Shown here: piece after piece, positions 6,772 through 32,909 of the stretch
Layout of the letters: every line of letters begins with the position of its first letter
Numbering within the stretch: position 1 is the first letter of the stretch
Assembly (NCBI GenBank): GCA_001873705.1
Contig: MNZR01000016.1
Span: 1 to 51,071, forward strand
DNA: 51,071 nucleotides
DNA from: Syntrophobacteraceae bacterium CG2_30_61_12
GTDB lineage: Bacteria; Desulfobacterota; Syntrophobacteria; Syntrophobacterales; DSM-9756
Direction: 5' to 3'
The notes under the pieces: generated by a model
What the model saw: only the letters and a program-made list of their open reading frames with translations
The model's database searches: none
What the model was told of the DNA's origin: nothing
Position numbers and translations under genes: made by a program

Positions 6772-8117
6772 GCGACCTGCGAGAAAAGATGCTTAGGCAG
6801 CAGGCCATTGAAGCGGCTATTGCGCATTATCAGCATGCTCATGGGCGGACCAGCAAGTTCCTTCCCGGGGATCGTGTTCCTTATGGCGGCCGCATTTTCG
6901 ACGCGGATGAGATCGCCAATTTGGTGGACGCATCGCTTGATTTCTGGTTGACGACCGGTCGCTATAGCGAAAGGTTCGAGGGCGAATTCGCCGACTTTCT
7001 CGGTGCTAGGTATTGTTCCCTCACCAACTCTGGATCATCGGCCAATCTGCTCGCTTTTATGGCGCTCACTTCACCAAAGCTTGGCCGACGACGCATCAAC
7101 CCCGGAGATGAGGTGATCACCGTGGCTGCCGCGTTTCCCACCACCGTCGCACCCATTATTCAATATGGGGCTATACCCGTTTTTGTTGATGTCTCGCTCC
7201 CCACTTACAACATCGACGTCGCTTTCCTCGAGTCCGCATTATCCGCAAAGACAAAAGCGGTCATGATCGCCCACACCCTCGGGAACCCCTTTGATCTCGA
7301 GACCGTATCAGCATTTTGCAGACAGCATGATCTCTGGCTCATCGAAGACAACTGCGACGCTCTGGGGGCTCGATATTTCCATGATGGGCACTGGCAATTC
7401 ACCGGGACCTTGGGACATCTCGGCACCTCCAGTTTCTATCCCGCGCATCATATCACGATGGGTGAGGGAGGAGCCGTTTACACCAACGACCTCCAACTGA
7501 AAAAACTAATAGATTCCTTCCGCGACTGGGGCAGGGATTGCTGGTGCCCATCGGGAAAGGACAACACTTGCCGACATCGATTTGAGCAGCGATTCGGTGA
7601 ACTCCCACCCGGATATGATCACAAGTATGTCTACTCGCATTTCGGGTACAACCTCAAGGTCACAGAGATGCAGGCAGCCATTGGCTGCGCTCAACTGCGG
7701 AAGCTTCCGTCTTTTATTTCCCGAAGACAGACCAATTGGCAGTTGCTGCATGCCGGTCTTTATGACATGCAGGACGTTTTCATTCTTCCCCAAGCGACAG
7801 CGAGTTCCGATCCCTCGTGGTTTGGCTTTCTCATTACCATAAAGGACGGCAAGCTCTTCAACAGGCATCAGATAATCAGCCACTTGGAAGAAAAAGGCAT
7901 TCAAACCAGAATGCTGTTTTCGGGCAATCTGCTCAAGCATCCTTGTTTCGATTTGATGCGTGGAACCAACACGGGTTATCGTGTGGTCGGAGACCTTGAG
8001 GTTACCAACCGGATCATGCGCGATTCATTCTGGATTGGAGTCTATCCCGGGTTGAACGATGAAATGATTGCCTATGTTGTTGCGGCGATCCTTGAATACG
8101 TGGAGTCACGGAGATGA
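6768..8117 (+). CDS. rfbH: CDP-4-keto-6-deoxyglucose 3-dehydrase (E1-type, PMP/[2Fe-2S]), DegT family
   Basis: DegT fold. [14 protein letters not shown] has His where aminotransferases carry the Schiff-base Lys. Cys cluster [12 protein letters not shown] (CxCx7C) is present. Length is 449 aa. Confidence 0.85.
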
Positions 8118-8731
8118 TGAAGGTCACCGAAAGCTCCATTCCCGGCTGTTACGAGATCATTTCTCGAGTTTTCCGAGACAATCGAGGGACGTTCGTCAAG
8201 ACATTCCATCACGACATGTTTCTAGAACATGGCCTGACCACTCAATGGAGGGAAGAATACTACTCCGTCTCGCACCACGGTGTTTTGCGGGGACTCCATT
8301 TTCAACTTCCTCCCCATGATCACGAAAAGCTCGTGTACTGCATCGCCGGACGGGTGTTGGATGCCGTGGTAGACCTGCGCAAGGGCTCGCCAACCTTCGG
8401 CCGGCATGTTTTGCTGGAGCTGGATGCAGGGAAAGCAAACATGCTCTATGTCCCCCGGGGGCTTGCCCACGGGTTTTACGTTCTCAGTGACTCAGCAATT
8501 TTGATCTACAAGGCTTCCTCCGTTCATGCACCCGAGCACGATACCGGTATTCACTGGAACACCGCTGGAATTTCATGGCCGGACAAGACTCCTCTGACGT
8601 CGCCACGGGACAATCAGTTTAGCTCATTGGATTGTCTGGATTCCCCTTTCATCTTTCATCAGGGTCAGGCAACGGGCAAACGAAGAAATCGTTCCACCGC
8701 CGGCATTGGCACTGATAACGCATATCGTTGA
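8114..8731 (+). CDS. RmlC-like cupin sugar-nucleotide 3,5- (or 5-) epimerase
   Basis: IPGCYEI...FRDNRGTF...GLHFQ...[10 protein letters not shown] matches the dTDP-4-dehydrorhamnose epimerase fold. The start overlaps the rfbH stop. Confidence 0.7.
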
Positions 8732-8810
8732 ACAGCAAAGGGCTTGGTAACATGAAGTCGGCTCACTTGGATCACGGGGTTGCACCCAGCAACAAATGGA
8801 TAGGGCTTGT

Positions 8811-9695
8811 ATGAAGATCCTCTTGACGGGAGCGACAGGATTTCTTGGATCTCGTCTAGCGACTCATCTCCATCGAGCGGGTCATTCGGTCTGCTACCTG
8901 CGCCGTCCTCAGTCTGTCGTGGCAAGGGAGGTGGCTCACCTCCCGGCCTATGTAGTTGAGCCGGATGGGTCCGGTATTCGAGAGGCATTGACTGAGGTTA
9001 GTCCCCATGTGGTGGTGCATTTGGCTGCCCACTACGTCGCCGAGCATCGCTTTGAAGATATCGAAGCCCTGGTGAGCAGCAACATCCTCTTCGGCAGCTA
9101 TCTCTTGGAGGCCATGCGCCTGGCAGGAGCCAAACACCTGGTCTACGCGGGCACCTCCTGGCAGCATTATGAGGGCGCCGAGTATCGGCCCGTGAACCTT
9201 TATGCGGCGACGAAACAGGCATTTTCAACACTCGCGGATTACTATCGCGACACAACGGAGATGCGGATCCTGGAATTACACCTCTACGACCTCTACGGTG
9301 AAGGCGATACAAGGCCTAGGCTCTTGAACCAACTGCAGTCCGCCGCCGACTCAGGAACGGAACTGGCGATGTCGATGGGGGAGCAGCGCATCCATCTGGT
9401 TCATGTGGATGATGTGAGCCGAGGCTTCGCCATGGCCTGCCGGCAGGTCCGGCAACAGGCTGCGGGCGAGCGTAGAGTATACCGACTGCCGTCATTACGA
9501 TCAGTCTCTTTGCAGGAACTCGTTGCAGCCTTCAGTGCCGTTAATCCCCATCTGCCTGCCAGGGTCGCGTGGGGCAAGCGGCCTTACCGTGCGCGCGAAG
9601 TGTTCCTCCCCTGGGATGGCCAGGAAATCCTACCGGACTGGGTTCCACGCATCGGACTGCAAGAGGGTTTGCGATGGTTCCGAGGATGCCGCTGA
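8811..9695 (+). CDS. NAD(P)-dependent SDR sugar-nucleotide 4-reductase/epimerase
   Basis: MKILLTGATGFLGSRLATHL Rossmann motif and YAATKQAFS (YxxxK). Size and position resemble CDP-dideoxyhexose synthases (RfbJ/RfbS/AscF class). Confidence 0.7.
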   Translation: MKILLTGATGFLGSRLATHLHRAGHSVCYLRRPQSVVAREVAHLPAYVVEPDGSGIREALTEVSPHVVVHLAAHYVAEHRFEDIEALVSSNILFGSYLLEAMRLAGAKHLVYAGTSWQHYEGAEYRPVNLYAATKQAFSTLADYYRDTTEMRILELHLYDLYGEGDTRPRLLNQLQSAADSGTELAMSMGEQRIHLVHVDDVSRGFAMACRQVRQQAAGERRVYRLPSLRSVSLQELVAAFSAVNPHLPARVAWGKRPYRAREVFLPWDGQEILPDWVPRIGLQEGLRWFRGCR

Positions 9696-9884
9696 GGAAC
9701 ATCGGCGTTTTACTCACAAACGCATGTTTGCAGTTTCGCGAGTGGAATCGCGAGGTTTCTTGATGGGTAGTCTAGCCTGGTGGCAAGTTGGCGGTGATTC
9801 TGCTCTCACTGCCATGCCAGCAAACGGCCAAGTCGGGGGGAAATTGGACCGGTCAACCCCATAACCACGAGATATTGCCTTTGG

Positions 9885-11135
9885 ATGTCGGAAAGATGTC
9901 AATATGAGTCGGGGGTGACAGTTCCTACTTTAACGCTATTTAAAACCAGCACGATGCGAACGGATGATGTGATGGGAAAGAATCATTACAAAGAAATAAA
10001 AACGATCTTGAATCATTGCAGGAATAATCGCGGTGACCAAGAGATCGTTTCCGCGCTTTCCGAAAACCGTATTTATATTTACGGAGCTGGAAATGTCGGT
10101 ACCGCGGTTTGTAAGCTGTTGCACGATGCTGGAATTGAGACAGAAGCTTTCTTGGATAGGAATTGCAACAGTGGAGCAATGCATCTGAATAAGAATATTT
10201 ACCAAATGGATTACCTTGATGCATTTACGTTCAACAAAAATACGGACTATATAATAATATCATTCATCGCGAGTCTTGCGGAAATGAAAGCAATAAAAAA
10301 TATTTTGAATGGAAAAGGATTTAAGAATGTAATACATTTCTATGATATTTATAGATTGTTGATAACTAATCGGCTGGCTCTCAAGAGTTCTAGTGCTTTT
10401 TTTGTTGCAACCGACGTTCTAATCGATTTCGATGAGATAATGGACAGAGTGTTGATGTCAAGCGAATTATGGCAAGACGAAATAAGTAGTAAGACATATC
10501 TTGACTTTGTCAGCGTAATATCGTCAGCAAATCCTGACCTATTTTCTCCAATGATTTGTCAGCAACAGTATTTTGTCAAGGACATCTTTTTTAATAAAGG
10601 CTACCTTCGGTTCATTGACTGTGGCGCCTATGAAGGGGATACGGCTGCCGCACTTGCAGCAAATACAGCGACGGCACGAGCCATTGTGTGCTTTGAGCCT
10701 GATCCACAGAATTTTATCAACCTTTGCACAGCAATGAGAAAGCAAAGAGTGGCGAACGAACAGATTTTGTTCCCCTGTGGCGTCTGGCATCGGAGCGAAA
10801 TGGTCCGCTTTCGGTCAGGAACCATGAGCACCAGTATGATCTCGGAAATCGGCGATAGGTATATCCAGTGTGTGGCGATAGACGATGTTGTTCCCGACTT
10901 CAAACCCACGTTTATCAAGATGGACGTCGAGGGGGCCGAGTACGAAGCGCTGCGAGGGGCACGGAAGACCATCAAGGAGGTTACGCCTGATCTTGCCATC
11001 AGTGTTTATCACCGGGTCGAACATATGTGGGAAATCCCACTTCTTCTGAAAAGCGAGCATGCTGACTATGCTTTCTATCTCAGAAATCACGGGCGGCATG
11101 GCGTGGAAACCGTAATGTATGCCACTTCACTCTAA
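9885..11135 (+). CDS. FkbM-family methyltransferase with N-terminal Rossmann-like domain
   Basis: IYIYGAGNVGTAV in the N-domain; FIDCGAYEGDT and FIKMDVEGAEYEALRGA in the FkbM core. Start is uncertain (ATG at 9885, 9954 or 9975). The gene is AT-rich. Confidence 0.7.
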   Translation: MSERCQYESGVTVPTLTLFKTSTMRTDDVMGKNHYKEIKTILNHCRNNRGDQEIVSALSENRIYIYGAGNVGTAVCKLLHDAGIETEAFLDRNCNSGAMHLNKNIYQMDYLDAFTFNKNTDYIIISFIASLAEMKAIKNILNGKGFKNVIHFYDIYRLLITNRLALKSSSAFFVATDVLIDFDEIMDRVLMSSELWQDEISSKTYLDFVSVISSANPDLFSPMICQQQYFVKDIFFNKGYLRFIDCGAYEGDTAAALAANTATARAIVCFEPDPQNFINLCTAMRKQRVANEQILFPCGVWHRSEMVRFRSGTMSTSMISEIGDRYIQCVAIDDVVPDFKPTFIKMDVEGAEYEALRGARKTIKEVTPDLAISVYHRVEHMWEIPLLLKSEHADYAFYLRNHGRHGVETVMYATSL

Positions 11136-11180
11136 GATTCTTGTACCATTTGTTTAACGAAATACAGGTTGGGGGTTGCG

Positions 11181-12767
11181 ATGAGAGACTACATAAGAAA
11201 ATTACTATTTATTGTACCTCCGGTTTCACCAGGAAATGGAGCGATTTCAAGAAATCTTGCTAGTTACAATGAAATACCTTTTGGTGTACTTTCTTTGGCT
11301 ACTTATATAAATAAATATTGCAGCAAAACTGTTAATATTAATATCTTAGATTTCAATGTTTCTAATGATTTAGCCTTTGTTGATAAGATAAAGAAAACCA
11401 TGGAGCAATTCAAACCCGATATAGTGGGGATCTCAGGGCTGTTTAACTCTATGTTTAGTTATGTAAACGAATTTTCCCGTTATGTAAAAGAAATTAATCC
11501 TAGTCTCGCGCTGGTCGTCGGCGGAGCTATTGCTACAAACTGCTATGAGTTGCTATTTAGTCACAACCCGTATATTGATGGTGCGTGCTATGCCGAAGGA
11601 GAGATTCCAATGCGCCTGCTCGTCGATGCGGAGAATCCCTTTTCACTTTTGGAAGGGCATCCATCCTGGATCACGAGAAAAAAAATATCCTCGGGTGTTA
11701 CTCCCAGTCCCACATTCATCCAGGATCTCGATGAGATCCCTCCGATCAATTATGCAATGGTAGATCTTGAAAAATACGACTCGCGGTGCCGGAATAACAA
11801 CCCGATCAAGCATGAAGCAGAAGACACCGCCGTCCGACTTCCGTTCGTCACGACAAGAGGATGCCCTTTCAATTGCATTTTTTGTGCGGCGAACTCCCTT
11901 TCAGGCAGAAAGGTAAGGTTCATGAGCGCTGAAAGGGTCATTTCCGATATCAAAAGAGCAAAAGAGCAATACAAGATGACCAAACTGGTGATTAATGATG
12001 ACCAGGTACTCATCGACAAGAAAAGGATCAAGAAGATTCTCGATGAAATCTCCGATTTTAATCTAATTGTCGAGTTTCCGAGTGGATTGAACGTCAAGTT
12101 CATCGATGAAGATATTGCCGTGAGATTGAAGCGAGCAGGGCTTGAAGTGGCCAATCTTGCGGTTGAGTCAGGTTCTGATCATGTATTGAAGAAAATCATT
12201 GACAAGCCGTTAAAAACTGCTGATATCAAGCCAGCAGTAGATGCCCTTAGGAAAAATGGTTTACTTATACATGGCTTTTTTATCTTCGGGTTTCCTGATG
12301 AGAGTGAAGATGACCGTATAATGACTATTGATCTGATCAAGGAAATTGGATTCGACTGGTCAAATATTTATGTTGCTGCACCCCTTATGGGGAGTAGGCT
12401 TTACCAGATTTTTCTGGAAAATGGCTATATAAAAGACGAAATCAACTTTCTGGATGCCAACATATATCAATCTAGCCTACGGTCGTCAGAAGATATCGGC
12501 AAATACGTCTATCGGGTGAACCTTGATGTGAATTTTGTAAACAATTACCGTATGAGAGTCGGCGATGATCAATTGGCTGAGGGTTATTTTAGTAATGTGG
12601 TGAATAACCACCCTCGCCATGCCTTTGGACATTACTGTCTTTCCATGGTGTACCAACGTCTTGACCACGATAACTATCGGAGTGGCAAACACATGAGGGA
12701 ATTCCATGAGATCGTCGCAACTGATGATGAATGGGCTGATCATGCTAGATACTTCAATCTCATCTGA
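11181..12767 (+). CDS. B12-binding-domain radical SAM enzyme (class B)
   Basis: N-terminal cobalamin-binding-like region (DIVGISGLF...VVGGAIATN) followed by TTRGCPFNCIFCA (CxxxCxxC). The gene is very AT-rich. Confidence 0.8.
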   Translation: MRDYIRKLLFIVPPVSPGNGAISRNLASYNEIPFGVLSLATYINKYCSKTVNINILDFNVSNDLAFVDKIKKTMEQFKPDIVGISGLFNSMFSYVNEFSRYVKEINPSLALVVGGAIATNCYELLFSHNPYIDGACYAEGEIPMRLLVDAENPFSLLEGHPSWITRKKISSGVTPSPTFIQDLDEIPPINYAMVDLEKYDSRCRNNNPIKHEAEDTAVRLPFVTTRGCPFNCIFCAANSLSGRKVRFMSAERVISDIKRAKEQYKMTKLVINDDQVLIDKKRIKKILDEISDFNLIVEFPSGLNVKFIDEDIAVRLKRAGLEVANLAVESGSDHVLKKIIDKPLKTADIKPAVDALRKNGLLIHGFFIFGFPDESEDDRIMTIDLIKEIGFDWSNIYVAAPLMGSRLYQIFLENGYIKDEINFLDANIYQSSLRSSEDIGKYVYRVNLDVNFVNNYRMRVGDDQLAEGYFSNVVNNHPRHAFGHYCLSMVYQRLDHDNYRSGKHMREFHEIVATDDEWADHARYFNLI

Positions 12768-13941
12768 GCACAGCGGGGTTAGCTGCCGCAAGGTGGCTGC
12801 TGCAAAGGACACCCTCTGCCGTGCCATAGCTCTTGAAGAGCCTGTTCCAGACGGCATCGCTCAGCTTGCCGGGCATCCGATATTCATCTACGGTGCGGGC
12901 AATTACGGTCGTATCATATACAGCCTGCTCACCCAAAATGGAATTCCCTCCCCTGCCATTCTTGGGTTTCTTGACATGGCGGCCACCGAAAACAGTACTC
13001 TGTCAAGCCTTCCCGTGTACCAACCGCATGCTTCATGCGTTACCAGGGCATTACGAAAAGAGGCGCAGGTGGTAATTTCAATTTATTCCAGCCTTGCGGA
13101 ACACGCCGCCATCATCGCATCGCTCCATGGCATGGGATACCGGAACGTCCGAAGTGGGTATGAAACGGCGCTCTCTTTTCACACGGCCAACGATCCGTCC
13201 ACCCGCATTGCGGAAACCGGTTTTCTTCGTGCAAGCCTGGCAAACATCATGCGAGGCTCCCAATTTTGGGAAGACAACCGTAGCCTTGAGACGTACGTGA
13301 ACCATTTTGTAGGGTATGCCCGATGTGATTTGGACAGTTTCGTCGTTGAAACCGATCACCGGCAGTACTTTCCGCCTTCGCCCCTGCGGGTCAAGGGAGA
13401 CATGCGATTTATCGATTGTGGGGCGTTCGACGGCGATACCATCCGTGATCTTCTCGAATACTCAGGGAAGGTGGAGAGCCTCGCCCTCTTCGAGCCATCC
13501 GCACGGAACTTCCAGAAGCTTACAACCTACGTGCGAGAAAACGAAGGAGATATCGCAGAGCAATTGACGCTTTTCCCTTGTGGTGTTTGGGACAGTACGG
13601 AGCGGCCATGTTTCGACGGCACTGCACTCTCGGCAAGTGCCATCTCGAATCGCGGTGACGAGTTCATCCAATGTGTTGCGATCGACGATGTTCTTCACGG
13701 CTTCAGCCCGACCTGCATCAAGATGGACATCGAAGGAGCCGAGCTGCATGCGCTCCGAGGCGCGGAAGAGACTATCAGGCAGTGCAAGCCCGATCTGGCT
13801 ATCAGCGTCTACCACTCACTCTCCCACTTGTGGGAAATCCCGGATCTCATCCGTCAATGGGTTCCAGGATACCGATTTTTTCTTCGCACTTATGGTTCCG
13901 CAGGCTTTGAAACGGTAATGTATGCCGTTGATACTGATTGA
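12742..13941 (+). CDS. FkbM-family methyltransferase, paralogue of 9885..11135
   Basis: Same architecture as the paralogue: IFIYGAGNYGRII, FIDCGAFDGDT, CIKMDIEGAELHALRGA, AISVYH. Start is uncertain (ATG at 12706/12742, or GTG at 12793). Confidence 0.7.
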   Translation: MLDTSISSEHSGVSCRKVAAAKDTLCRAIALEEPVPDGIAQLAGHPIFIYGAGNYGRIIYSLLTQNGIPSPAILGFLDMAATENSTLSSLPVYQPHASCVTRALRKEAQVVISIYSSLAEHAAIIASLHGMGYRNVRSGYETALSFHTANDPSTRIAETGFLRASLANIMRGSQFWEDNRSLETYVNHFVGYARCDLDSFVVETDHRQYFPPSPLRVKGDMRFIDCGAFDGDTIRDLLEYSGKVESLALFEPSARNFQKLTTYVRENEGDIAEQLTLFPCGVWDSTERPCFDGTALSASAISNRGDEFIQCVAIDDVLHGFSPTCIKMDIEGAELHALRGAEETIRQCKPDLAISVYHSLSHLWEIPDLIRQWVPGYRFFLRTYGSAGFETVMYAVDTD

Positions 13942-13959
13942 CAGCAGGGGAGATAAAAC

Positions 13960-14982
13960 ATGAATGCAATAAAAGTGGCAGGTGCAGGTTATCAACGCAG
14001 GGAGCTAAGGCAATGGCTTCCTCTCACAACTCCCTTTGCGTTGCATCTCTTTCCCTCTCACTACTGTAACTTCAGATGCGCGTACTGCGTCCACGGTCTT
14101 CCAGCCGATAAGATAAGGTCCATGGGGTCCAAAAAGACAATTATGGATGTTAACCTATTTGAAAAGTGCATCACCGATGTCCTGAACTTCCCGGAACGCT
14201 TACAGGTTTTAATCTTCGCCGGGTGGGGAGAACCGTTGACTCACCCTAATATTGTGGAAATGGTTGAATTGGCAAAACGTAATGACGTCGCCAAACGAAT
14301 AGAAATTGTGAGTAACGGTGCGATGCTGACGAACGATCTCTCGAAAAAACTTATTGAAGCAGGGCTAGATCGTATTCGAATATCGATTCAGGGGCTAGAT
14401 TCTGTGAGATGCAGTGACGTTGCCGGAGTCAATGTCAACTTCGAGTCTCTTCTCGACAATATCCGGTACTTCCACGCGAACCGCAAAAACGCCAGAATTT
14501 TTGTAAAGACCGTCGACGCTGCGGTGCCGACTGATGCCGATCGTCAAATATTCCATGGAATCTTCGAGGGAATTTGTGATGAGATCGCTGTTGAACAGGT
14601 AATCCCGGTTATAAAAGGCATCGACCACTCAAGATTCGGTAGTGAATTCAACAAGCGACATTGTGGCGGCTTGGCCGTCCCAGTCGCCGTATGCCCATTT
14701 CCGTTCTACATGTCCGTGGTCCATCCCGACGGCAGCTATGCTCCATGTTGCTCGTCCGAACTTCCTTTGCCCCTTGGAAACGTTGGAGATACTTCCATCA
14801 CCGAGATCTGGAACGGAGAAGCCCTGTGGAGATTTCGCGTCACTCATCTTAAGGGAACTCGAGGTGGCGCCACCCTGTGCCGCAGGTGTCCGCGCCCGCA
14901 ATACGATATTCAGGAAGGAGACGATCTTGACCCGTATGCCGGCGAACTGCTTTCCGCTTACCAACGTCTAGCGCATATTTAA
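13960..14982 (+). CDS. Radical SAM/SPASM-domain enzyme, paralogue 1
   Basis: SHYCNFRCAYC (CxxxCxxC), GWGEPL, and a C-terminal Cys-rich region CPFPFYMSVVHPDGSYAPCCS...CRRCPRP. Confidence 0.8.
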   Translation: MNAIKVAGAGYQRRELRQWLPLTTPFALHLFPSHYCNFRCAYCVHGLPADKIRSMGSKKTIMDVNLFEKCITDVLNFPERLQVLIFAGWGEPLTHPNIVEMVELAKRNDVAKRIEIVSNGAMLTNDLSKKLIEAGLDRIRISIQGLDSVRCSDVAGVNVNFESLLDNIRYFHANRKNARIFVKTVDAAVPTDADRQIFHGIFEGICDEIAVEQVIPVIKGIDHSRFGSEFNKRHCGGLAVPVAVCPFPFYMSVVHPDGSYAPCCSSELPLPLGNVGDTSITEIWNGEALWRFRVTHLKGTRGGATLCRRCPRPQYDIQEGDDLDPYAGELLSAYQRLAHI

Positions 14983-14993
14983 AAGGATACGCC

Positions 14994-16010
14994 ATGAGTG
15001 CCGAAATTAAACCCGGCTTCAATTATGACAGAAAGAAACTGGCAGACATTATCCCGCTTAAAACCCCATTTACGTTCCTACTCGCCCCCTCTCACGTATG
15101 CAACCTGAGGTGTTTTTACTGTTCTCAAGCAAAAGATCGCGAAGATCTCATCAAGGATGGCTTTCGCTTCAAGTTGATGGACTACGACGTCTTTCTCAAG
15201 TTCGCCAAACAGTTGAAGCGGTTTCCCGATAGGCTCAAACTCGTTTTCGTCTCCGGCATGGGCGAACCCTTGATGCACAAACGTCTTCCCGACATGATTG
15301 CACGACTCCGGAACTTGGATGTGGCCGAACGCTTGGAAATATTCACGAACGGCCTGCTCTTGACCAAAGAAACCAGCGAAGCCCTTGTTGACTCGGGACT
15401 CACCCGAATTCGCGTTTCGTTGCAAGGGTTAACCTCCAAAAAATACAAAGAGATATCGAGTGCTGACATTAGCTTTGAGGACCTGCGCCACAACCTTGCG
15501 TATTTTTTCAAGGTACGTAAGCAGTGCAAACTTTATGTGAAAGTAATCGATGTGGCTCTGGAACCGGGCGAGGAGGATAAGTTCTACGATATGTTCCGGG
15601 ATGTCAGCGATGAAATGTTCATTGAACGCTTCGTTCCCTATCAACTGACAATGGGGGACTATGACAATGCCGCCGGTGTTACGACAACCGTGTACGGCGA
15701 CAAGATTCTTAGTGCTGATGTCTGTCCCGAGCCCTTCTTCAATTGGCAAATCGACGTCGATGGCAACATCTACCCTTGTTGTCCCCTTGGGCTACCCAAA
15801 TCCTTTTCCGTCGGCAACGTTAACCACTCAACGATCTTCGACATGTGGAACGGCGAGAAGGCACGGCAGCTGCGACTCCAACTGCTCGGTAAGCAGCGTT
15901 CAGCACACTATGTCTGCGGAAGCTGTCGAGTCTTTCTGTCGAAGCTGACTCCCGCCGACCGGCTCGACGACGATGCCGACAGGCTGATCCCCCTTTTTGA
16001 AAAACTGTAA
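14994..16010 (+). CDS. Radical SAM/SPASM-domain enzyme, paralogue 2
   Basis: SHVCNLRCFYC, GMGEPL, CPEPFFNWQIDVDGNIYPCC...CGSC. Collinear with paralogue 1. Confidence 0.8.
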   Translation: MSAEIKPGFNYDRKKLADIIPLKTPFTFLLAPSHVCNLRCFYCSQAKDREDLIKDGFRFKLMDYDVFLKFAKQLKRFPDRLKLVFVSGMGEPLMHKRLPDMIARLRNLDVAERLEIFTNGLLLTKETSEALVDSGLTRIRVSLQGLTSKKYKEISSADISFEDLRHNLAYFFKVRKQCKLYVKVIDVALEPGEEDKFYDMFRDVSDEMFIERFVPYQLTMGDYDNAAGVTTTVYGDKILSADVCPEPFFNWQIDVDGNIYPCCPLGLPKSFSVGNVNHSTIFDMWNGEKARQLRLQLLGKQRSAHYVCGSCRVFLSKLTPADRLDDDADRLIPLFEKL

Positions 16011-16023
16011 GGAGTGATGTCAG

Positions 16024-17043
16024 ATGAAAGCCGAAATTAAGCCGATCGCCGACCTCAATCGCGTGAGGCTCGCCGATGCCGTCCCCCTGAAGACGCCATT
16101 CGCGCTGTACCTCTTTCACACGAACATCTGTAATTTCAGGTGCACCTTTTGCGCGCACAGTCTGGGGCGCGAAGGGATGAAACGGGAGTATGGCTTTGTG
16201 CCTGAAGTCATGCCGATGGAGGTGTTCGAACGCACCATCGAACAGATGAAAGCCTTTCCTCGCAAATTCAAATTTGTCTCCTTTACCGGCCAGGGAGAGC
16301 CTCTGACCAACAAGCGTCTTCCTGACCTGGTCATGCGCCTGCGGAAGGCCGAGGTTGCCGATGTCACCGAAGTCATCACCAACGGAGCGCTGCTGACCCC
16401 AAAGATCAGCAGGGCGCTCATCGACGCAGGACTGGATCGGATGAAGATTTCAATCCAGGGTATCAATACCCAAGCCTATAAGACTATCACGGGGGTGAAT
16501 GTCGATTTCGACAAATTTGTCGAGCAGGTGCGCTTTCTCTACGAGCGGAAAGGAATGATGCAGCTTTTCGTCAAGGTCATGAACATCTCCCTTGCTCCTG
16601 GCGAAGATGAAAAATTCTACAAGATCTTCGGCGAAATATCGGACCGCATGTATATCGAGACTTGTCGTCCAGTGTACCCTGGCGTCGACTATGGAGACAG
16701 GAGTGAAGATGTAACCATGGACCGTTTCGGACGCCAGCATGATAAACGTTTGGTCTGCCCCCTCTGCTTTTTCCACCTCGCCATCTGGCCCAATGGCGAC
16801 GTCGTTCCGTGCGATACGATCCTCAAGCCTATCGTCCTGGGCAATGTCAATGACAAACAGATGACGCTGAAAGACATGTGGAATGGCCGGGCACACCGTG
16901 AGTTCTGCGCGATGCAACTTCGTAAGGAGCGCATGATCTCCAATCCGCAGTGCACTAGGTGCATTGCCCCGGATGACGTTTGTCACCCTGAGGATGCCTT
17001 AGACATCGATGCTGAAAAGATACGGACATCGTACTATCAGTAA
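16024..17043 (+). CDS. Radical SAM/SPASM-domain enzyme, paralogue 3
   Basis: TNICNFRCTFC, GQGEPL, CPLCFFHLAIWPNGDVVPCD...CTRC. Collinear with paralogues 1 and 2. Confidence 0.8.
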   Translation: MKAEIKPIADLNRVRLADAVPLKTPFALYLFHTNICNFRCTFCAHSLGREGMKREYGFVPEVMPMEVFERTIEQMKAFPRKFKFVSFTGQGEPLTNKRLPDLVMRLRKAEVADVTEVITNGALLTPKISRALIDAGLDRMKISIQGINTQAYKTITGVNVDFDKFVEQVRFLYERKGMMQLFVKVMNISLAPGEDEKFYKIFGEISDRMYIETCRPVYPGVDYGDRSEDVTMDRFGRQHDKRLVCPLCFFHLAIWPNGDVVPCDTILKPIVLGNVNDKQMTLKDMWNGRAHREFCAMQLRKERMISNPQCTRCIAPDDVCHPEDALDIDAEKIRTSYYQ

Positions 17044-17150
17044 TTGGGAACAGGGCAAACCATGTCGAAAAGCGGCTTTTGGGATGGACTGCAAGGAGAG
17101 AAGGGCTTCGTTAGCCGAATCACGATTCAGCTAGCATGGGTATATTCGTC

Positions 17151-18449
17151 ATGACAAGAATACTTCATATTACAGCCCATCTTGGCGGGGGCGTTGGGAA
17201 GGTGCTTTCTCGGCTTTGTGGAAAATCAGTGCGGCCGCGAAGTGATGTTCAGCATACCATCATATGCATGGAACATCCGCAAAAGTCCGAATTCAGGGAT
17301 TACGTCCTGGCCAGTGGTTCTGAGTTATTGGTCTGTCCTTCAAGCGGTTTACTCAACCGTCGAGTCGCCGAAGCTGACATCGTTCAGGTGGAATGGTGGC
17401 ACCACCCCGTTGTGGCGGGCTGGCTTTGCGCAGGGGTGTTGCCTCCCATGCGGTTGGTGGTGTGGAGCCATGTCTCCGGGCTTCATCCGCCCGAAATTCC
17501 GCTGGGGTTCCTGCTGGCTCCTCATCGTTTTCTTTTTACCTCCCCCTGTTCCTGGGAGCATCCCCGGATTATTGGACTCGATGGTGAACAACGGCATAGA
17601 ATCGATGTTGTGCACAGCTCCGGTGGCTTCGAAGATTTATCGGAACGCTGCGCAGCACCGCGAGATGGCCCCATTCGCGTCGGATATGTGGGGACTCTCA
17701 ATTTCTCCAAGCTCCATCCTGAGCTTCTGGATTTCTTGGAGGCCGTGCCCTTGCCCAAGTTTCGACTGACTCTTGTAGGTGATCTAACAGCAGGCGAGCA
17801 ACTGATTTCCCGCGCTGCCTCCAGACATTTGACCGACAGACTCGAGTTGCCCGGTTACAAGGCCGATGTAGCCACTGAACTTGCCCGCTTCGATGTGTTG
17901 GCCTACCTTTTGAATCCCCTCCACTACGGCACCACGGAAAATGCCCTGCTGGAGGCCATGGCTATGGGGGTGGTGCCGGTGGTTCTGAATAACCCGGCAG
18001 AGCGGCATCTGGTCACGCATGGAGAAACCGGTCTCATAGTAGATTCCCCAGCAGCCTTTGCCGAAGCGCTGGTGTTTCTGGAGGATCACCCTGACAAGCG
18101 TAACATACTGTCCGCCAATGCAAGCGTTGATGTGCGTGAGCGTTTCGCGTTGCAGCGCACGATCTCGCTGCTCGAAACTCACTACCGAGCAGTTTTGGAG
18201 GAGCCGAAACGGGTGTTCGACTTCCGGTCGGTATTTGGGGGCAGGCCTTCCGATTGGTTCCTTGCCTGCCAGGGATCGCAAGTCTGGCGATTCAAGGGCA
18301 ACAAAAAACACATGGAGCTCACCGGAAAGAGTAGCAGGGGGCCTCATTACCTTTACGAAAAGACCAAGAGCTCCGTATTCCACTACCATCACACCTATCC
18401 GCATGACAGACAGCTGGAGTCCTGGGCGCAAAACCTGGAGGCAAGATAG
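17151..18449 (+). CDS. GT4 (GT-B) family glycosyltransferase
   Basis: MTRILHITAHLGGGVGKV N-terminus and TENALLEAMAMGVVPVV (Ex7E region). Confidence 0.75.
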   Translation: MTRILHITAHLGGGVGKVLSRLCGKSVRPRSDVQHTIICMEHPQKSEFRDYVLASGSELLVCPSSGLLNRRVAEADIVQVEWWHHPVVAGWLCAGVLPPMRLVVWSHVSGLHPPEIPLGFLLAPHRFLFTSPCSWEHPRIIGLDGEQRHRIDVVHSSGGFEDLSERCAAPRDGPIRVGYVGTLNFSKLHPELLDFLEAVPLPKFRLTLVGDLTAGEQLISRAASRHLTDRLELPGYKADVATELARFDVLAYLLNPLHYGTTENALLEAMAMGVVPVVLNNPAERHLVTHGETGLIVDSPAAFAEALVFLEDHPDKRNILSANASVDVRERFALQRTISLLETHYRAVLEEPKRVFDFRSVFGGRPSDWFLACQGSQVWRFKGNKKHMELTGKSSRGPHYLYEKTKSSVFHYHHTYPHDRQLESWAQNLEAR

Positions 18450-18492
18450 AAAGAAATAAGTTCAATGCTGCTATCGATTTAAAAAATTCATA

Positions 18493-19695
18493 ATGATTCT
18501 AAGGCGCGCAGAGGGTCTTGACCTTCTGGACGGAATCATTGCTGCACAATTCTCTGATATTTCCCTTATTCACTGGATGTCGCCCATGCAAAGCCACGGA
18601 TTGGGAATGAGTGAAGAGCAACAGCCCCATATCTTTCCAAAGGTGGATGTCATTGTCCCTACCTATGATTACGGTCATTATCTGAATGCCTGTCTGGCAT
18701 CGATTAGAGCCCAAACCTATGCCGACTATTCCGTCCTGATCATCGACAATGCATCCGAAGACGATACTGAAAAGATCGCCAGGCACTGGCAGAACAGGGA
18801 TTCCCGCTTTCGTTATGTTCGCAACGATACCAACCTCGGACTGATGGCCAGTGTTCTGAAGGCCTACGCGCTCACCCGGGCTGAGTTGGTTCTTTTTTTG
18901 TCCGCGGACGATTTGCTTGAGCCCCGGTTCCTGGCACTTGCGGTTGGGGCACTCGATCAACATCCCGAATGCACATTTGCCTACAGCGCATGGAAAATGT
19001 TCGTTGATGATCCCGGGAGTCAAAACCATGGTGCGGAATACCGCTATTTCTCTCCGCATGATTGCAGTGGTTGCTATGATGAAGCAGCATTGCTGCTGGC
19101 TCACAACTGGATCACCAACTCGTTCACTCTCTTCCGCCGAGAGGTTTGTGATGCCGTAGGGGGGGTTAATCCTACCGACCTGCAGCATGTTGGTGACTGG
19201 TACACTTGGATGCTGTTTTCTGCGAAGGGTCCGGCCTGCTATATCCACGAGAGACTTGGGCGGTATCGAATACATGCCAACACGGAAACAAACCGGTTGG
19301 TCGCCAATTACCGGTCCGGTTACGATCATATTCGCTTTTACGACCTCATCTTCGAATCGGAGCTTTGGCCCATGCCGATCCGCTTGGCTGCCAAAGCGCA
19401 TCAAAGCCGATGGCTGACAGGCGAACCCCTGACGCTCATCGCCCGAAAGATGGGTGGTGAGCGAGCCGAGCCCTTGATGCGACATTTCGTAAGCAGGTAT
19501 CGCGATGCATTCTATGTGGCCATCGCTCAGAGTGTTCTCCAGTACACGCCCAGCAAGAATTTCCTGGATACTCCGGAAAATGCGCTGGCCCTTCTGCGAG
19601 AAGTGTTGCTTCACGATTCAAGCAATGCGCAAGCGGCTATGCTGTACCAATCCTATCGTGGACAAGGTCGATCCAAAGGGCTGTTGATCACGTAG
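18493..19695 (+). CDS. GT2 family glycosyltransferase
   Basis: VDVIVPTYDYGHYLNACLASIRAQTYADYSVLIIDNASEDDT. The start may be an internal ATG (18577 or 18607). Confidence 0.75.
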   Translation: MILRRAEGLDLLDGIIAAQFSDISLIHWMSPMQSHGLGMSEEQQPHIFPKVDVIVPTYDYGHYLNACLASIRAQTYADYSVLIIDNASEDDTEKIARHWQNRDSRFRYVRNDTNLGLMASVLKAYALTRAELVLFLSADDLLEPRFLALAVGALDQHPECTFAYSAWKMFVDDPGSQNHGAEYRYFSPHDCSGCYDEAALLLAHNWITNSFTLFRREVCDAVGGVNPTDLQHVGDWYTWMLFSAKGPACYIHERLGRYRIHANTETNRLVANYRSGYDHIRFYDLIFESELWPMPIRLAAKAHQSRWLTGEPLTLIARKMGGERAEPLMRHFVSRYRDAFYVAIAQSVLQYTPSKNFLDTPENALALLREVLLHDSSNAQAAMLYQSYRGQGRSKGLLIT

Positions 19696-19766
19696 GTGTT
19701 CTTGATGAGTTGTTATGCGCGCAGTCGTGTTGAACGAGAAACTACACCTTAGATACGAGTACCGCC

Positions 19767-22700
19767 GTGAACAAATTGATCCAACTGAGAAATGCTAGAA
19801 CGACCGGGCGCCATTGGGGCGAAGCGAACAACGAACGCGAGTTCGCCACATTCTCATGTGATCATCCGAATCAGGCTGGTGCGCATATTCGGCAGATTTC
19901 GTCCCATGCCAGTAAATACGTCACCATTGTGATACCGGTTCATGATGCTTTGGATTTGACTCGAACCTGTGTCAACTCTATTTATACTAATACTCCCTGC
20001 GGGACTTACCAAATCATTATTGTGGATAATGGGTCAACGCATGGCGTGCGAGGCCTTCTCGACACGAGGAATACATCCGAGTCCATCAGGGTGATTCGGA
20101 ATCGGGAGAACTTGGGATTCGCCAAGGCCTGCAATCAAGGCATCCGGAGCGCTCGGGGGCACTTTGTTCTACTGCTCAACAATGATACTGTCGTGACCGC
20201 GGGATGGCTGGACGCATTGCTTGTGGAGATGGAACAAAACAAAAAGGTTGGCATTGCGGGATCCTGTTTGCTCTATCCCGGCAGCACCCGGATCCAGCAT
20301 GTTGGAGTTTCGGTGGGATGGCACAACGGTGTCCTGTTTCCATACCACGTTCATAGGCTGCGTAAGGTTGAGCATGTTCCGGATGCCCTCCGAAGTCGCA
20401 AGCTGAAAGCCGTAACAGGTGCCTGCATGCTTGTGCGGCGTGAAATACTCGATGTGGTGCCCGGATTCGACGAAATTTATCTGAATGGCTACGAGGATAT
20501 CGACTTCTGCTTTCAAGCCTTGAAAGCGGGTTTTGACATTCACTATTGCGGTAAGAGCCAAGTATACCACCATGAGTCGATGTCGAAGGGGCGGCACGAT
20601 CGCGACGGGGAAAATCTTTGGAGGTTGAATAAGAAATGGAATGGGATCGTCGAACCGGACGAAGACGAAATGACAACGCATGCAGCCCTACGCGAGATTG
20701 CGGCACGTGAAGAATTGCAAAGAAATCCTGACAGCTACAAGTGCATATCGATGCTTCAGGGTATCTCTCTCGAGCGCGGCGACTATGACGAGGCCCGTGA
20801 ATGCAGAATGGGAAGACTCCCTGCCGTGCCCGTCGTCACCATTGTTATTCCCACCTACAATAATCTGGCGCTCACAACCCAGTGCCTCAAATCGATTCGC
20901 GATACAACTTCCGGCATCCCTTTTGAGATTATTTGCGTTGACAATGCTTCCAGCGACGGCACGGTCGAGTTTCTCAAACGTGAAGAATCTCTGAACAAGT
21001 TGGTCCTGGTCAGCAACGGGCAGAATCTGGGTTTTGCCAAGGCCTGTAACCAGGGCGCCAAGCTCGCGTTGGGAAAATACCTTGTGTTTCTCAACAACGA
21101 CATCATAGCCTTGGACGGTTGGTTACGGGAAATGCTCAAGTGCATGGATGGCGATGCCAGTGTCGGGATGGTCGGGAGCAAACTTCTGTATCCGCAAGGA
21201 ACAGTTCAACACGCCGGAGTCGCTTTTGGAGAAGACGGTATACCTTTCCACATATATCGTTTTGCGGATCCCGAGGCTGCCTATGTGAACAGGACACGCG
21301 AGTTGTCCGCTGTCACCGGGGCGTGTTTCCTCGTCCGGCGAGAGGTATTTTCGAAGTTGGGCGGTTTTGATGAGAAATACGAGAACGGCTTGGAGGACAT
21401 TGATTTTTGTCTTCGCATTAGAGAACAAGCACTGAGGATTCTGTACTGCCCGACAAGCGTCCTCTATCACATGGAAAGTGTATCGGAGGGGAGATTTAAT
21501 AAGACATTGGATAACTGTCGTTATTTCTCCGCGAAGTGGGGAAGGGGACTCAATGCGGATGATGAGAGAATATGCGCGGAGGACGGCACGGACATCCGGC
21601 GAATTCGTCATCTTGAGGCTTCCATGCGCCAGGGCATGGGGTATTCCCGGAAAACCGTCATCGACTATAGGATCGATTCCACGCCCCTGTGCGAGCAACT
21701 CACGGCGAGTCGCGATTTGACCACACCAAATCCCTCGTCGAACAAGGCTTCTTTGCTGTCCATTGTTATCCTGTCACTGAATCAGTCGGAATGGACCCGG
21801 GCATGTCTGGAAAGCATTAGGAAGCACAGCACCTTGCCTTACGAAATCATCCTGGTGGACAACGGATCGTCAAGCCGGACCATCAGCGCTCTCCTGGATT
21901 TCACCGTTAATGATCCACGTATTTCCGTCATTCTCAATGCTCGAAACAAGGGGTTTGCCGGGGGCAACAATCAGGGGATGGCCCTGGCCCAGGGCGATTA
22001 CATCTTGTTGCTCAACAATGACACGCTGGTTACCGCGGAATGGCTGGAAGGCCTGGTGAAGGTCTTCGCGGATTATCCCAAGGTCGGCATCGTGGGGCCC
22101 ATGTCGAATCATGTTGCGGGCCCGCAGCTAGTGGAGAGCGCCCGATACGGGAATATCACGGAAATGGAAGCCTTTGCGTCGCGCTGGCGGAAGGACAATT
22201 GCGGCACAACCTTTTCCGTTCCGGCCGTTATAGGATTTTGCATGCTCGTAAGACGGCGAGTGATCGATGCAATTGGCGGACTGGATGAACTTTTCGGTGT
22301 AGGGAATTTTGAGGACATCGATTACTGCTATCGAGCTTTCCTTGCGGACCACGAAATCCGGGTTGCCCGTGATGTCTTTATCCATCATCAGGGCAGTCTC
22401 ACTTTCAAGGCTGAAAATGTCGACTACGTCAGGTTGATGAAGAAGAACTGGGAACTCTTCAAGGCGAAATGGGGTCTGGATCCCGGTCTTGCCCTTGCCA
22501 GGGGACAGAGGACTGTTGTGCTCAATAAGGAACGGGCGCTGCGACAAACGATTGCTCTTCCTGATCTTCGGGAAACCCACGAGTACGACGCGGAAATGAA
22601 GCTCTGGCGTGGCAGATCAACCAAGGCGTACCCCTTGAACAAGACCGGGAGAAAGGCGGGGCTCCCGGTTGAGCGCGAGTCTCGCGGTGGAATTGCCACC

Positions 22701-23675
22701 ACCGCCGAATCGCTATCCGCAAGTGCTTTCCAACCTCCCGTCACCGCCAATAATCCCATGCCCCGGATATCCATCATTATTCCGACGTACCAGAATGTGG
22801 ACCTTACCCGCCAATGTCTGCATGGGATCCTTCACAATAAGGCGGACATTCCATGCGAAATAATCGTTGTTGACAACCACTCTACTGACGGCACCGAGTT
22901 GTACCTTCGAGAAATGCAGAGCAAGGGCATCCTCAGAGCTCTATTCAACCCCATGAACGCGGGGTTTGCTCGGGCATGCAATCAGGGGGCGCAGGTGGCT
23001 CAATGCCCATTTCTCCTTTTTCTCAACAACGATACCTTTCCCATGAAGGGATGGATGCAGTCTCTACTCCAAATCGCGCTACGGGATGAAAATGCGGCCA
23101 TCATTGGAAGCAAGCTTCTTTATCCTGACGGGAAAGTGCAACATGCCGGCATGGAACTCATTCACTACGACAAGGGAAGGAAGTTGGCACGCCCCGTTCC
23201 CGGACATCCCCATCGGTTTGCTGACAGCAATGCCGCTGAGGTGAATCAATATCGTGAACCGGATATGGTGACAGGTGCTTGCATTCTGGTGAGGAAAGAG
23301 GTCTTTTTTCTGCTCGGCGGTTTCGACGAAGTCTACCGCAACGGGGTCGAGGATGTGGATCTTTGCCTCAGAGCCCGTTGTGCCGGATACAAGGTGGTGT
23401 ATCAGCCCGAGTCTGTTGTCTTCCACTACGAAGGGCAGAGTCCGGGGAGATTTGACAAAGAACCGGTCTGTAAAAACCTCTCGATCTATTTCGCGCGGTG
23501 GGGGAACCAATTCGGTACGGACGGGCGCTTGCTCATCCCGCAACCCCCACGCATCATTCGGTCTCAGACCAGCCTATTGGTCGGTGATCACGGCGGCCCA
23601 TCAATGGCACCCGGCCCATCGAGCGGCTCCAATGGAGAAGGGCTCAGAATTTGCTTGTCCAGGTTCTCGAAGTGA
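19767..23675 (+). CDS. 1302-aa protein with four tandem GT2 catalytic domains
   Basis: Four repeats of the same motif series: (V/I)(V/I)IP(V/T)(H/Y)..., VDN(G/A/H)S, LNND, TGAC.LVR(R/K)E (IGFCMLVRRR in domain 3) and ED(I/V)D.C. Domains start near aa 51, 356, 663 and 1000 (nt ~19917, 20832, 21753, 22764). GTG start. Confidence 0.8.
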   Translation: MNKLIQLRNARTTGRHWGEANNEREFATFSCDHPNQAGAHIRQISSHASKYVTIVIPVHDALDLTRTCVNSIYTNTPCGTYQIIIVDNGSTHGVRGLLDTRNTSESIRVIRNRENLGFAKACNQGIRSARGHFVLLLNNDTVVTAGWLDALLVEMEQNKKVGIAGSCLLYPGSTRIQHVGVSVGWHNGVLFPYHVHRLRKVEHVPDALRSRKLKAVTGACMLVRREILDVVPGFDEIYLNGYEDIDFCFQALKAGFDIHYCGKSQVYHHESMSKGRHDRDGENLWRLNKKWNGIVEPDEDEMTTHAALREIAAREELQRNPDSYKCISMLQGISLERGDYDEARECRMGRLPAVPVVTIVIPTYNNLALTTQCLKSIRDTTSGIPFEIICVDNASSDGTVEFLKREESLNKLVLVSNGQNLGFAKACNQGAKLALGKYLVFLNNDIIALDGWLREMLKCMDGDASVGMVGSKLLYPQGTVQHAGVAFGEDGIPFHIYRFADPEAAYVNRTRELSAVTGACFLVRREVFSKLGGFDEKYENGLEDIDFCLRIREQALRILYCPTSVLYHMESVSEGRFNKTLDNCRYFSAKWGRGLNADDERICAEDGTDIRRIRHLEASMRQGMGYSRKTVIDYRIDSTPLCEQLTASRDLTTPNPSSNKASLLSIVILSLNQSEWTRACLESIRKHSTLPYEIILVDNGSSSRTISALLDFTVNDPRISVILNARNKGFAGGNNQGMALAQGDYILLLNNDTLVTAEWLEGLVKVFADYPKVGIVGPMSNHVAGPQLVESARYGNITEMEAFASRWRKDNCGTTFSVPAVIGFCMLVRRRVIDAIGGLDELFGVGNFEDIDYCYRAFLADHEIRVARDVFIHHQGSLTFKAENVDYVRLMKKNWELFKAKWGLDPGLALARGQRTVVLNKERALRQTIALPDLRETHEYDAEMKLWRGRSTKAYPLNKTGRKAGLPVERESRGGIATTAESLSASAFQPPVTANNPMPRISIIIPTYQNVDLTRQCLHGILHNKADIPCEIIVVDNHSTDGTELYLREMQSKGILRALFNPMNAGFARACNQGAQVAQCPFLLFLNNDTFPMKGWMQSLLQIALRDENAAIIGSKLLYPDGKVQHAGMELIHYDKGRKLARPVPGHPHRFADSNAAEVNQYREPDMVTGACILVRKEVFFLLGGFDEVYRNGVEDVDLCLRARCAGYKVVYQPESVVFHYEGQSPGRFDKEPVCKNLSIYFARWGNQFGTDGRLLIPQPPRIIRSQTSLLVGDHGGPSMAPGPSSGSNGEGLRICLSRFSK

Positions 23676-23729
23676 TGCGGCCACGGCGGAGCCCAGTGTG
23701 CTTGAATAGAAGCCATCAAGGAGTTCACA

Positions 23730-26583: not shown

Positions 26584-26627
26584 GAAGAAGGGGTCTTGAT
26601 CATCGTTAGGGCCATTTCAAACAAGAT

Positions 26628-26700
26628 CACCCACGGAGGCACAGAGGACCCAGAGAAATTCCAAGGTTTTTCTCCGTGTCCTCCGTGTTCTCTGTGGTGA
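26628..26700. repeat. REP-like compound hairpin in the intergenic region
   Basis: CACGGAGGCACAGAGGA...TCTCCGTGTCCTCCGTG...TCTCTGTGG. The arms are built from CACGGAGG/CACAGAGG units and their complements. Confidence 0.55.
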
Positions 26701-26756
26701 AAGCCTTTTGCTGTGGACGAAACGATGATCGTCGCCGAGGAAAGGTATCGGCCGGC

Positions 26757-30081: not shown

Positions 30082-30085
30082 CTTA

Positions 30086-31852: not shown

Positions 31853-31859
31853 AATGAAC

Positions 31860-32699: not shown

Positions 32700-32739
32700 T
32701 CTCCGGGGACCAAACTCCAAACTACCAGTCCGAAGCCGG

Positions 32740-32772
32740 GGGGGCGCCGTCAAGGCGCCCCCTTTCTTGTTG
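32740..32772 (+). terminator. Rho-independent terminator after fliC
   Basis: GGGGGCGCC-GTCAA-GGCGCCCCC is a perfect 9-bp GC stem followed by TTTCTTGTT. Confidence 0.8.
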
Positions 32773-32789
32773 ATCCCTTGAGGTTTTAC

Positions 32790-32817
32790 TAAAGCCGTCG
32801 GCGGATTCAGCCGATCT
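32790..32817 (+). promoter_or_regulatory. Sigma28-type promoter for fliD-fliS
   Basis: TAAAGCCG-N12-GCCGATCT, ~90 nt before the fliD ATG. Spacing matches the fliC candidate. Confidence 0.45.
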
Positions 32818-32909
32818 ATCCAGTGAGACCATCACTGCCGGACGGCGCACCGAGCGGATCAACACCGCCGGCCGGCGGAATCATCATCGGCAAGACAAGG
32901 AGTTGGGTC

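Follow-up and report, generated by a model that had tools for sequence, protein, structure and literature searches.

The window analysed here is the whole of contig MNZR01000016.1 from Syntrophobacteraceae bacterium CG2_30_61_12, a stretch of 51,071 nucleotides, and our subject is three tandem genes for radical S-adenosylmethionine (SAM) enzymes within it, which we call rS1, rS2, and rS3. The open reading frame (ORF) listing bears out the initial annotation of this DNA in giving three plus-strand ORFs of 340, 338, and 339 aa, separated by 11 nt (rS1–rS2) and 13 nt (rS2–rS3). A Shine–Dalgarno-like GGGGAG, AAGGA, or AGGAG lies ahead of each start codon. A scan of positions 9600–19800 for promoters and terminators stayed at chance level and so speaks neither for nor against internal transcription units. 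All three proteins match the Pfam model Radical_SAM (PF04055) with 59.7–73.3 bits (gathering cutoff 29.5) and the Pfam SPASM model with 42.5–48.8 bits (cutoff 21.5). They are 32–38% identical to one another, and in a search of their own genome the other two copies match rS2 at E 5e-61 and 2e-70, far beyond chance. The Pfam matches and a family alignment of the three window copies with 135 homologues, taken from a collection of 5.8 billion proteins and from genome loci, make them paralogues within one radical SAM subfamily, as had been supposed, and not unrelated enzymes.

The cysteines of the SAM-cleaving cluster are C36, C40, and C43 in rS1, rS2, and rS3 alike. The motif order that the initial annotation described for the three copies stands, with LPL(T/K)TPF, CN(F/L)RCxxC, GxGEPL, SxQG, and CPxxF...G....PC collinear in the alignment. 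Its details needed correction: rS3 has NG, not DG, ahead of the second twitch cysteine, the spacing from F to D/N-G is 7 residues, not 6, and the CxxC sits 43–46 residues after PC, not 3. It had also been stated that no copy carries an inactivated cluster motif, and indeed CX3CX2C and GxGEPL are whole in all three. The proteins have the marks of the Radical SAM superfamily, namely CX3CX2C, a GGE-type motif, and a PF04055 match above the cutoff.

Only seven cysteines are universal in the family alignment: C36, C40, C43, C245, C263, C307, and C310 in the numbering of rS1. The same seven are invariant in a 70-sequence alignment. The SAM-cluster cysteines and the G-x-GEPL motif are invariant across the family alignment, and the four C-terminal cysteines, corresponding to C244, C262, C308, and C311 in rS2 and to C245, C263, C310, and C313 in rS3, are 98–100% conserved. 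A SPASM domain has a seven-cysteine motif, CX9-15GX4C, a gap, CX2CX5CX3C, a second gap, and a final C. It binds two auxiliary clusters (PMC9012708). There is no cysteine after the CxxC in rS1 and rS2, so that a second auxiliary cluster cannot be ligated there, and the extra cysteine of rS3, C320, is not conserved. With just four conserved C-terminal cysteines, in the pattern of the BtrN twitch domain, the SPASM label given by the initial annotation has to be withdrawn. The Pfam SPASM model scores above its cutoff because it also spans the twitch part.

The best sequence match of rS1 in the PDB is BtrN (4M7S/4M7T, E 1.5e-9), with the twitch cysteines aligned one for one, and a family profile finds BtrN at E 2e-24 in a match that takes in the twitch domain as well as the radical SAM core. 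For rS1, AlphaFold2 gave a model with a predicted local distance difference test (pLDDT) score of 95.7 and a predicted template modelling (pTM) score of 0.93. In the twitch region of this model, strands 251–254 and 259–261 are followed by helices 280–297, giving a β-hairpin and helix. The top Foldseek match in the PDB is again BtrN (4m7t, E 1.4e-13, TM score 0.73 normalised to BtrN), followed by BlsE and then DesII, and the substrates of all three radical SAM enzymes are carbohydrates or nucleoside sugars. The window proteins show both features of a BtrN-type twitch domain, the alignment of four cysteines with the BtrN ligands and a hairpin–helix fold with BtrN as the nearest structure. The BtrN twitch domain has one auxiliary cluster ligated by four cysteines, and the enzyme performs a two-electron oxidation of an alcohol to a ketone (PMC10337720, PMC9012708); the MoaA-type twitch cluster is held by three cysteines with an open Fe site (PMC9012708). 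We conclude that the window proteins follow the BtrN-type pattern, with a single predicted Cys4 auxiliary cluster. We considered and rejected the idea that they are orthologues of BtrN itself, that is, 2-deoxy-scyllo-inosamine (DOIA) dehydrogenases, because their neighbours are cytidine diphosphate (CDP)-hexose, FkbM, glycosyltransferase, and flagellar genes and the identity is ~20%.

The initial annotation had pointed out that rS3 has PCD where rS1 and rS2 have PCC, and took this as a hint of a different Fe–S complement and of sub-functionalisation. The difference is real in the alignment, but it does not touch the clusters. The residue after the second twitch ligand (Cys264 in rS1, Asp264 in rS3) is not a ligand, and BtrN has Phe there (PCF); furthermore, Asp is normal for the rS3 orthogroup. 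Since residue 264 is no ligand, the Fe–S complement is expected to be the same in all three copies. Among closer homologues, the residue is Cys in 93 of 105 rS1-type proteins, Pro in 11 of 15 of the rS2 type, and Asp in 16 of 18 of the rS3 type, so in these sequences the Cys/Pro/Asp signature appears typical of the orthogroups and is not universal. Sub-functionalisation thus survives in part: a residue diagnostic of the orthogroup fits a difference in chemistry or specificity, but not one in cluster content. NeoN uses a Cys as the H-atom donor in sugar epimerisation (PMC10991966), and by analogy Cys264 of rS1-type proteins is a candidate H-atom donor. For Asp264 of rS3 we infer a possible role as a general base. 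When specificity-determining positions were defined strictly, as at least 80% conserved in every clade with residues differing between clades, just 2 were obtained, the rS1 group being too varied; when a residue had to be specific to one clade alone, 11 positions came out for rS2 and 12 for rS3.

Two maximum-likelihood trees were built by the IQ-TREE quick search, with the Shimodaira–Hasegawa-like approximate likelihood ratio test (SH-aLRT) as the measure of support and without bootstrap or approximately unbiased tests. The rS2 clade has support of 99 and 98 in the two trees and the rS3 clade 99 and 99, and these clades are sisters with support of 92 and 95. For the rS1 clade, the first tree gives support of 98; the second places rS1 in a supergroup at 94 with subgroups 1a and 1b (1b at 95), and no starred set of that tree contains the window rS1. 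Each clade holds exactly one copy from each multi-copy locus, these loci being from Geobacter sp. UBA6151, a Desulfobacteraceae metagenome-assembled genome (MAG), Rhodocyclaceae, Azonexus, and Competibacteraceae MAGs, Aminipila terrae, Anaerobacterium chartisolvens, and a genome of the same phylum (G160). The closest cassette is that of Geobacter sp. UBA6151, with orthologues 63% (rS1), 82% (rS2), and 82% (rS3) identical. The rS3 gene comes immediately after rS2 in 9 of 10 multi-copy loci, with rS1-type genes on one side or the other of this pair. Two further radical SAM genes in the Geobacter sp. UBA6151 locus (L008, 201–1175 and 3414–4412), upstream of FkbM genes, are CX3CX2C/twitch-like and very divergent, and they form long branches in both trees.

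At the DNA level, the only repeat found among the three window genes is a 20-nt match between the start regions of rS2 and rS3. The trio is present in 0 of 40 relatives of the same family and order, 6 of which have a single member of the family, with the two sampled loci falling in subgroup 1b. Across the phylum, 10 of 401 genomes have any copy, and 2 of 401 have three or more. The initial annotation had proposed local duplication and divergence, and the separate orthogroups common to several phyla, the lack of a longer DNA repeat, and the absence of the trio from the 40 relatives contradict it. The same three results lead us to conclude that the trio arrived as a ready-made cassette. As judged from the trees and from gene order, rS1–rS3 represent three ancient orthogroups that are co-inherited in a horizontally mobile cassette.

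Base composition is consistent with acquisition in pieces. The G+C content of the island that holds the trio is 42–53%, as against 55–60% in its flanks; it falls to 42–45% in the interval 10001–13000, which holds the first FkbM gene and the gene for a B12-binding radical SAM enzyme, and is 50–53% in the three twitch radical SAM genes, while the rest of the window has 55–64%. In this respect, the island resembles a patchwork of acquired segments.

Related loci were compared with the window by tblastn of its proteins. The rfbF/G(/H) genes, an RmlC-like gene, a short-chain dehydrogenase/reductase (SDR) gene, FkbM, a glycosyltransferase of family GT4, and the radical SAM set are syntenic in at least 10 loci from Thermodesulfobacteriota, Pseudomonadota, and Bacillota, often with the B12 radical SAM gene. 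Several of these loci adjoin flagellin, and flagellin lies within the locus in Aminipila, in a UBA2530 Firmicutes locus, and in G160. There are five radical SAM copies in Aminipila terrae and four in Anaerobacterium chartisolvens, both without rfbH. At E ≤ 1e-30, the family profile collected 2651 clusters (50% identity), a number that may include neighbouring subfamilies. Some members are fused to other enzymes of the cassette: in a 775-aa protein found on 11 contigs (P0121; loci L098 and L099), a full-length orthologue of the window GT4 is combined with a radical SAM domain of the rS1 type, and in a 585-aa protein (P0217) FkbM is combined with a twitch radical SAM domain. These fusions, together with the linkage in the cassette, connect the family with the transfer of glycosyl groups and the methylation of sugars. 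The L098 contig also encodes two GT2 proteins of 750–780 aa and has no CDP-sugar genes within its 16 kb.

The genes around the trio are collected in Table 1. Beyond fliC–fliD follow genes for a sigma-54 activator, FliF, FliG, and FliI, and the cluster is a flagellin glycosylation island within a flagellar regulon.

Table 1. Genes of the flagellin glycosylation island (positions in the window; TPR, tetratricopeptide repeat).
Feature	Position	Strand	Basis or remark
RfbF-like cytidylyltransferase	4892-5668	+	Pfam, NCBIfam
RfbG-like 4,6-dehydratase	5590-6771	+	Pfam, NCBIfam
RfbH/E1-like 3-dehydrase	6768-8117	+	Pfam, NCBIfam
RmlC-like epimerase	8114-8731	+	Pfam, NCBIfam
SDR reductase	8796-9695	+	Pfam, NCBIfam
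FkbM-family methyltransferase 1	9885-11135	+	Pfam, NCBIfam, synteny
B12-binding radical SAM enzyme, probable methyltransferase	11169-12767	+	low-GC part; kept in Rhodocyclaceae/Competibacteraceae loci
FkbM-family methyltransferase 2, PglD_N-like N-terminal domain	12706-13941	+	co-conserved directly upstream of the trio
rS1, twitch radical SAM enzyme, orthogroup 1a	13960-14982	+	340 aa; Pfam, alignment, model, trees
rS2, twitch radical SAM enzyme, orthogroup 2	14994-16010	+	338 aa; Pfam, alignment, trees
rS3, twitch radical SAM enzyme, orthogroup 3	16024-17043	+	339 aa; Pfam, alignment, trees
GT4 glycosyltransferase, 437 aa	17136-18449	+	co-conserved beside the radical SAM genes
GT2, 1302-aa multi-GT2, TPR, Glyco_trans_1_2, two GT2-TPR, GT4	18493-31750	+	Pfam
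Flagellin (281 aa) and FliD cap protein	31854-34223	+	mark the island as part of the flagellar regulon

The genes at 4892–9695 match enzymes of the CDP-3,6-dideoxyhexose pathway in Pfam and NCBIfam. Neither the window nor the surroundings of rfbH in related cassettes (loci L009–L017) contain a gene for an E3 reductase of the AscD/DdhD type, and the electron donor for 3-deoxygenation is not locally encoded. It was considered that the radical SAM set might replace the missing E3 reductase, and this was rejected, since the cassettes of Clostridia keep the set without rfbH.

Several further features of the island were seen. The two overlaps between ORFs, 79 nt at 5590–5668 (rfbF/rfbG) and 62 nt at 12706–12767 (B12 radical SAM/FkbM2), are such that the true starts of rfbG and FkbM2 are probably further downstream than called. 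The top NCBIfam matches of the B12 radical SAM enzyme are the P-methyltransferase families Sden_1168 (146 bits, cutoff 575) and PhpK, together with HpnJ, all far under cutoff. Both FkbM proteins have an N-terminal Rossmann-like segment with weak similarity to PglD_N/NeuD. In PglD, such a Rossmann-like fold binds the nucleotide-sugar, and the PglD_N-like segment hints that methylation may occur at the nucleotide-sugar level. The region 19767–23675 is one ORF of 1302 aa with repeated GT2 matches, four segments of which align to GT2 genes in related loci. The flagellin (31854–32699) has N- and C-terminal helical domains with merely ~55 residues between them, and the glycan would occupy a very small exposed region because this flagellin is so short.

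We propose, at a probability of about 70%, that rS1–rS3 have non-redundant roles as BtrN-like enzymes that tailor carbohydrates and belong to a mobile cassette for a flagellin glycan. The fact that all three types are kept in different phyla speaks against redundancy. The cassette most likely tailors an unusual deoxy-sugar that is placed on the flagellar filament. In the proposed mechanism, each enzyme would hold two [4Fe-4S] clusters, one at CX3CX2C that cleaves SAM and an auxiliary one ligated by four cysteines. The 5'-deoxyadenosyl radical would take a hydrogen from a defined carbon of the sugar, by analogy to BtrN, SpeY, DesII, HygY, and NeoN. The substrate radical could then be converted to a ketone by oxidation via the auxiliary cluster, as in a dehydrogenase, or be quenched from the opposite face, as in an epimerase. 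The substrate may be the CDP-3,6-dideoxy-L-hexose made by RfbF/G/H, the RmlC-like enzyme, and the SDR, or else a CDP-6-deoxyhexose, or the sugar after its transfer by GT4. The resulting keto or epimeric intermediates would feed the methylations by FkbM and the B12 radical SAM enzyme, and the heavily tailored sugar would be placed on flagellin by the downstream GT2-TPR enzymes. Within the carbohydrate-tailoring proposal, we would put the specific dehydrogenase or epimerase chemistry, drawn from the characterised enzymes, at somewhat less than even odds.

Several points weigh against this proposal. The identity to BtrN is just ~20%, and the BtrN substrate pocket is not transferable to the window proteins because these have an N-terminal extension and an insert at ~185–243, with ~90 aa extra in all. 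The assembly of a cluster by the four cysteines is a prediction from the sequence. We also infer, by analogy, the reaction type, the target carbon, and the substrate level (CDP-sugar or protein-bound glycan) of this subfamily. With regard to residue 264, the window rS2 has Cys where its orthogroup mostly has Pro, the Geobacter rS2 likewise has Cys, and the Cys/Pro/Asp signature is weaker in a wider set of 144 representatives at 50% identity.

Another kind of radical sugar chemistry is unlikely, though the most probable of the alternatives. It could be an AprD4-like diol dehydration or deoxygenation, a BlsE-like decarboxylation, a DesII-like deamination, or a C–C bond formation or ring rearrangement leading to a branched or higher-carbon sugar. 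In structure, BlsE and DesII rank second and third among the neighbours of rS1, methyl and radical enzymes abound in the cassette, and the presence of three to five paralogues at a locus hints at a long series of tailoring steps. However, a Cys4 auxiliary cluster and BtrN as the nearest relative favour redox-coupled H-abstraction first (PMC9012708), and genes that form carboxylates or amines are not conserved across the cassette, an aminotransferase being present in Aminipila only.

It is improbable that rS1–rS3 are protein or peptide maturases that act on flagellin or on a small precursor peptide. Most SPASM/twitch enzymes are of this kind, and the Pfam SPASM matches, the weak partial NCBIfam matches to maturases of RiPPs (peptides made by the ribosome and modified after translation), the presence of EpeE, SuiB, and SkfB among the lower structural matches, and the closeness of the trio to fliC would all agree with it. 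Every curated RiPP-maturase model, however, scores far under its cutoff, no domain like the RiPP recognition element (RRE) was detected in the proteins, and their N-terminal extension is merely ~25 aa. The gaps bordering the trio, 11–93 nt, are too short for a precursor ORF; the ORF listing for the window covered frames of 40 aa or more. Furthermore, the nearest neighbours in sequence and structure are sugar enzymes, the family is closely linked to the genes for CDP-sugars, GT4, and FkbM, with fusions among the links, and homologous cassettes also occur at loci without flagellin within the sequence fetched.

Two other readings have very little probability. The first, that the proteins are maturases of a cofactor or metalloenzyme, such as a tungsten-cofactor oxidoreductase, or are MoaA-like, comes from TIGR04317 being the top NCBIfam match for all three and from the public name of one homologue (P0059), 'tungsten-containing aldehyde ferredoxin oxidoreductase cofactor modifying protein'; but TIGR04317 scores 94.2, 80.0, and 78.2 bits against a cutoff of 380 and matches the N-terminal radical SAM core only, the MoaA model gives 60–76 bits against a cutoff of 284, the twitch cysteines are four and invariant, not the three with an open Fe site of MoaA (PMC9012708), and there is no aldehyde ferredoxin oxidoreductase (AOR) or molybdopterin gene in the neighbourhood. 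The second, a recent local tandem duplication with copies redundant or barely diverging, would suit the tandem layout, the equal lengths, and the collinear motifs, but not the identity of only 32–38%, a DNA repeat limited to 20 nt at two starts, orthologues 63–82% identical in Geobacter sp. UBA6151 with clear ones in other phyla, or a trio missing in close relatives.

Carbohydrate tailoring of a flagellin glycan is the reading that we retain, and it can be extended. Orthogroups 1a/1b, 2, and 3, co-inherited with GT4 and FkbM, may constitute an undescribed oxygen-independent radical pathway that makes successive C–H functionalisations, with epimerisation or oxidation at several sites preceding methylation, on a CDP-6-deoxy- or 3,6-dideoxy-hexose or on a flagellin-bound sugar. 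The outcome would be a new class of flagellin glycan sugar in anaerobes, and rS2 and rS3 could work as a two-enzyme unit or heterodimer. We offer this extension tentatively and regard it as rather unlikely in this full form.

Carbohydrate-acting twitch radical SAM enzymes have so far come from a handful of antibiotic pathways (BtrN, SpeY, HygY, NeoN, DesII, and BlsE). Here, a large uncharacterised subfamily is found within primary surface-glycan biosynthesis in at least three phyla, its paralogues standing next to flagellin genes in fixed groups of three to five. A literature search for this radical SAM subfamily or its cassette found no paper. The type of enzyme is already known; the subfamily, its fixed multi-paralogue sets, and the flagellin-glycan context are not described. 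Once solved, the reactions would add new oxygen-independent sugar chemistry and define a flagellin glycan of anaerobes, and the cultured carriers Aminipila terrae and Anaerobacterium chartisolvens make the hypothesis directly testable. For annotation, the labels 'radical SAM/SPASM domain protein' and 'tungsten cofactor maturase' mislead on these genes.

How does this system compare with those already known? The CDP-ascarylose/3,6-dideoxyhexose pathway (RfbF, RfbG, RfbH = E1, E3, epimerase, and reductase) is matched by the genes at 4892–9695, but in its classical form it has no radical SAM, FkbM, or B12 radical SAM steps. DesII (thymidine diphosphate (TDP)-4-amino-4,6-dideoxyglucose deaminase/dehydrogenase, 8HZV/8HZY) and BlsE (cytosylglucuronate decarboxylase, 7VOB) have as substrates nucleotide- or nucleoside-linked sugars of the 6-deoxy or uronic type, and they match the window proteins in the N-terminal core sequence. 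Their sequence alignment, however, is limited to the radical SAM core, and DesII is ~130–150 aa longer than the window proteins. We know of neither family in multi-paralogue arrays or flagellin islands. HygY and NeoN, which are twitch-type sugar epimerases, and the twitch dehydrogenase SpeY (PDB 7WZV), a lower structural match of the rS1 model, share radical H-abstraction at a sugar carbon. For HygY, a switch from epimerase to dehydrogenase is reported. However, no detectable close sequence relationship of these three to the window proteins is shown, and they act on aminoglycoside pseudo-oligosaccharides rather than on nucleotide sugars or the glycans of proteins. BtrN, the butirosin 2-deoxy-scyllo-inosamine dehydrogenase and founding twitch radical SAM enzyme, is the most instructive comparison. 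It shares CX3CX2C and the twitch domain, an almost equal C-X17/18-C-X43-C-X2-C spacing, and a carbohydrate-like substrate. The window proteins are ~90 aa longer, with an N-terminal R13/LPLxTPF segment as well as the insert at ~185–243, and occur as sets of 3–5 paralogues. BtrN serves the synthesis of a 2-deoxystreptamine aminoglycoside, whereas rS1–rS3 stand in a setting of CDP-deoxyhexose synthesis and flagellin glycosylation.

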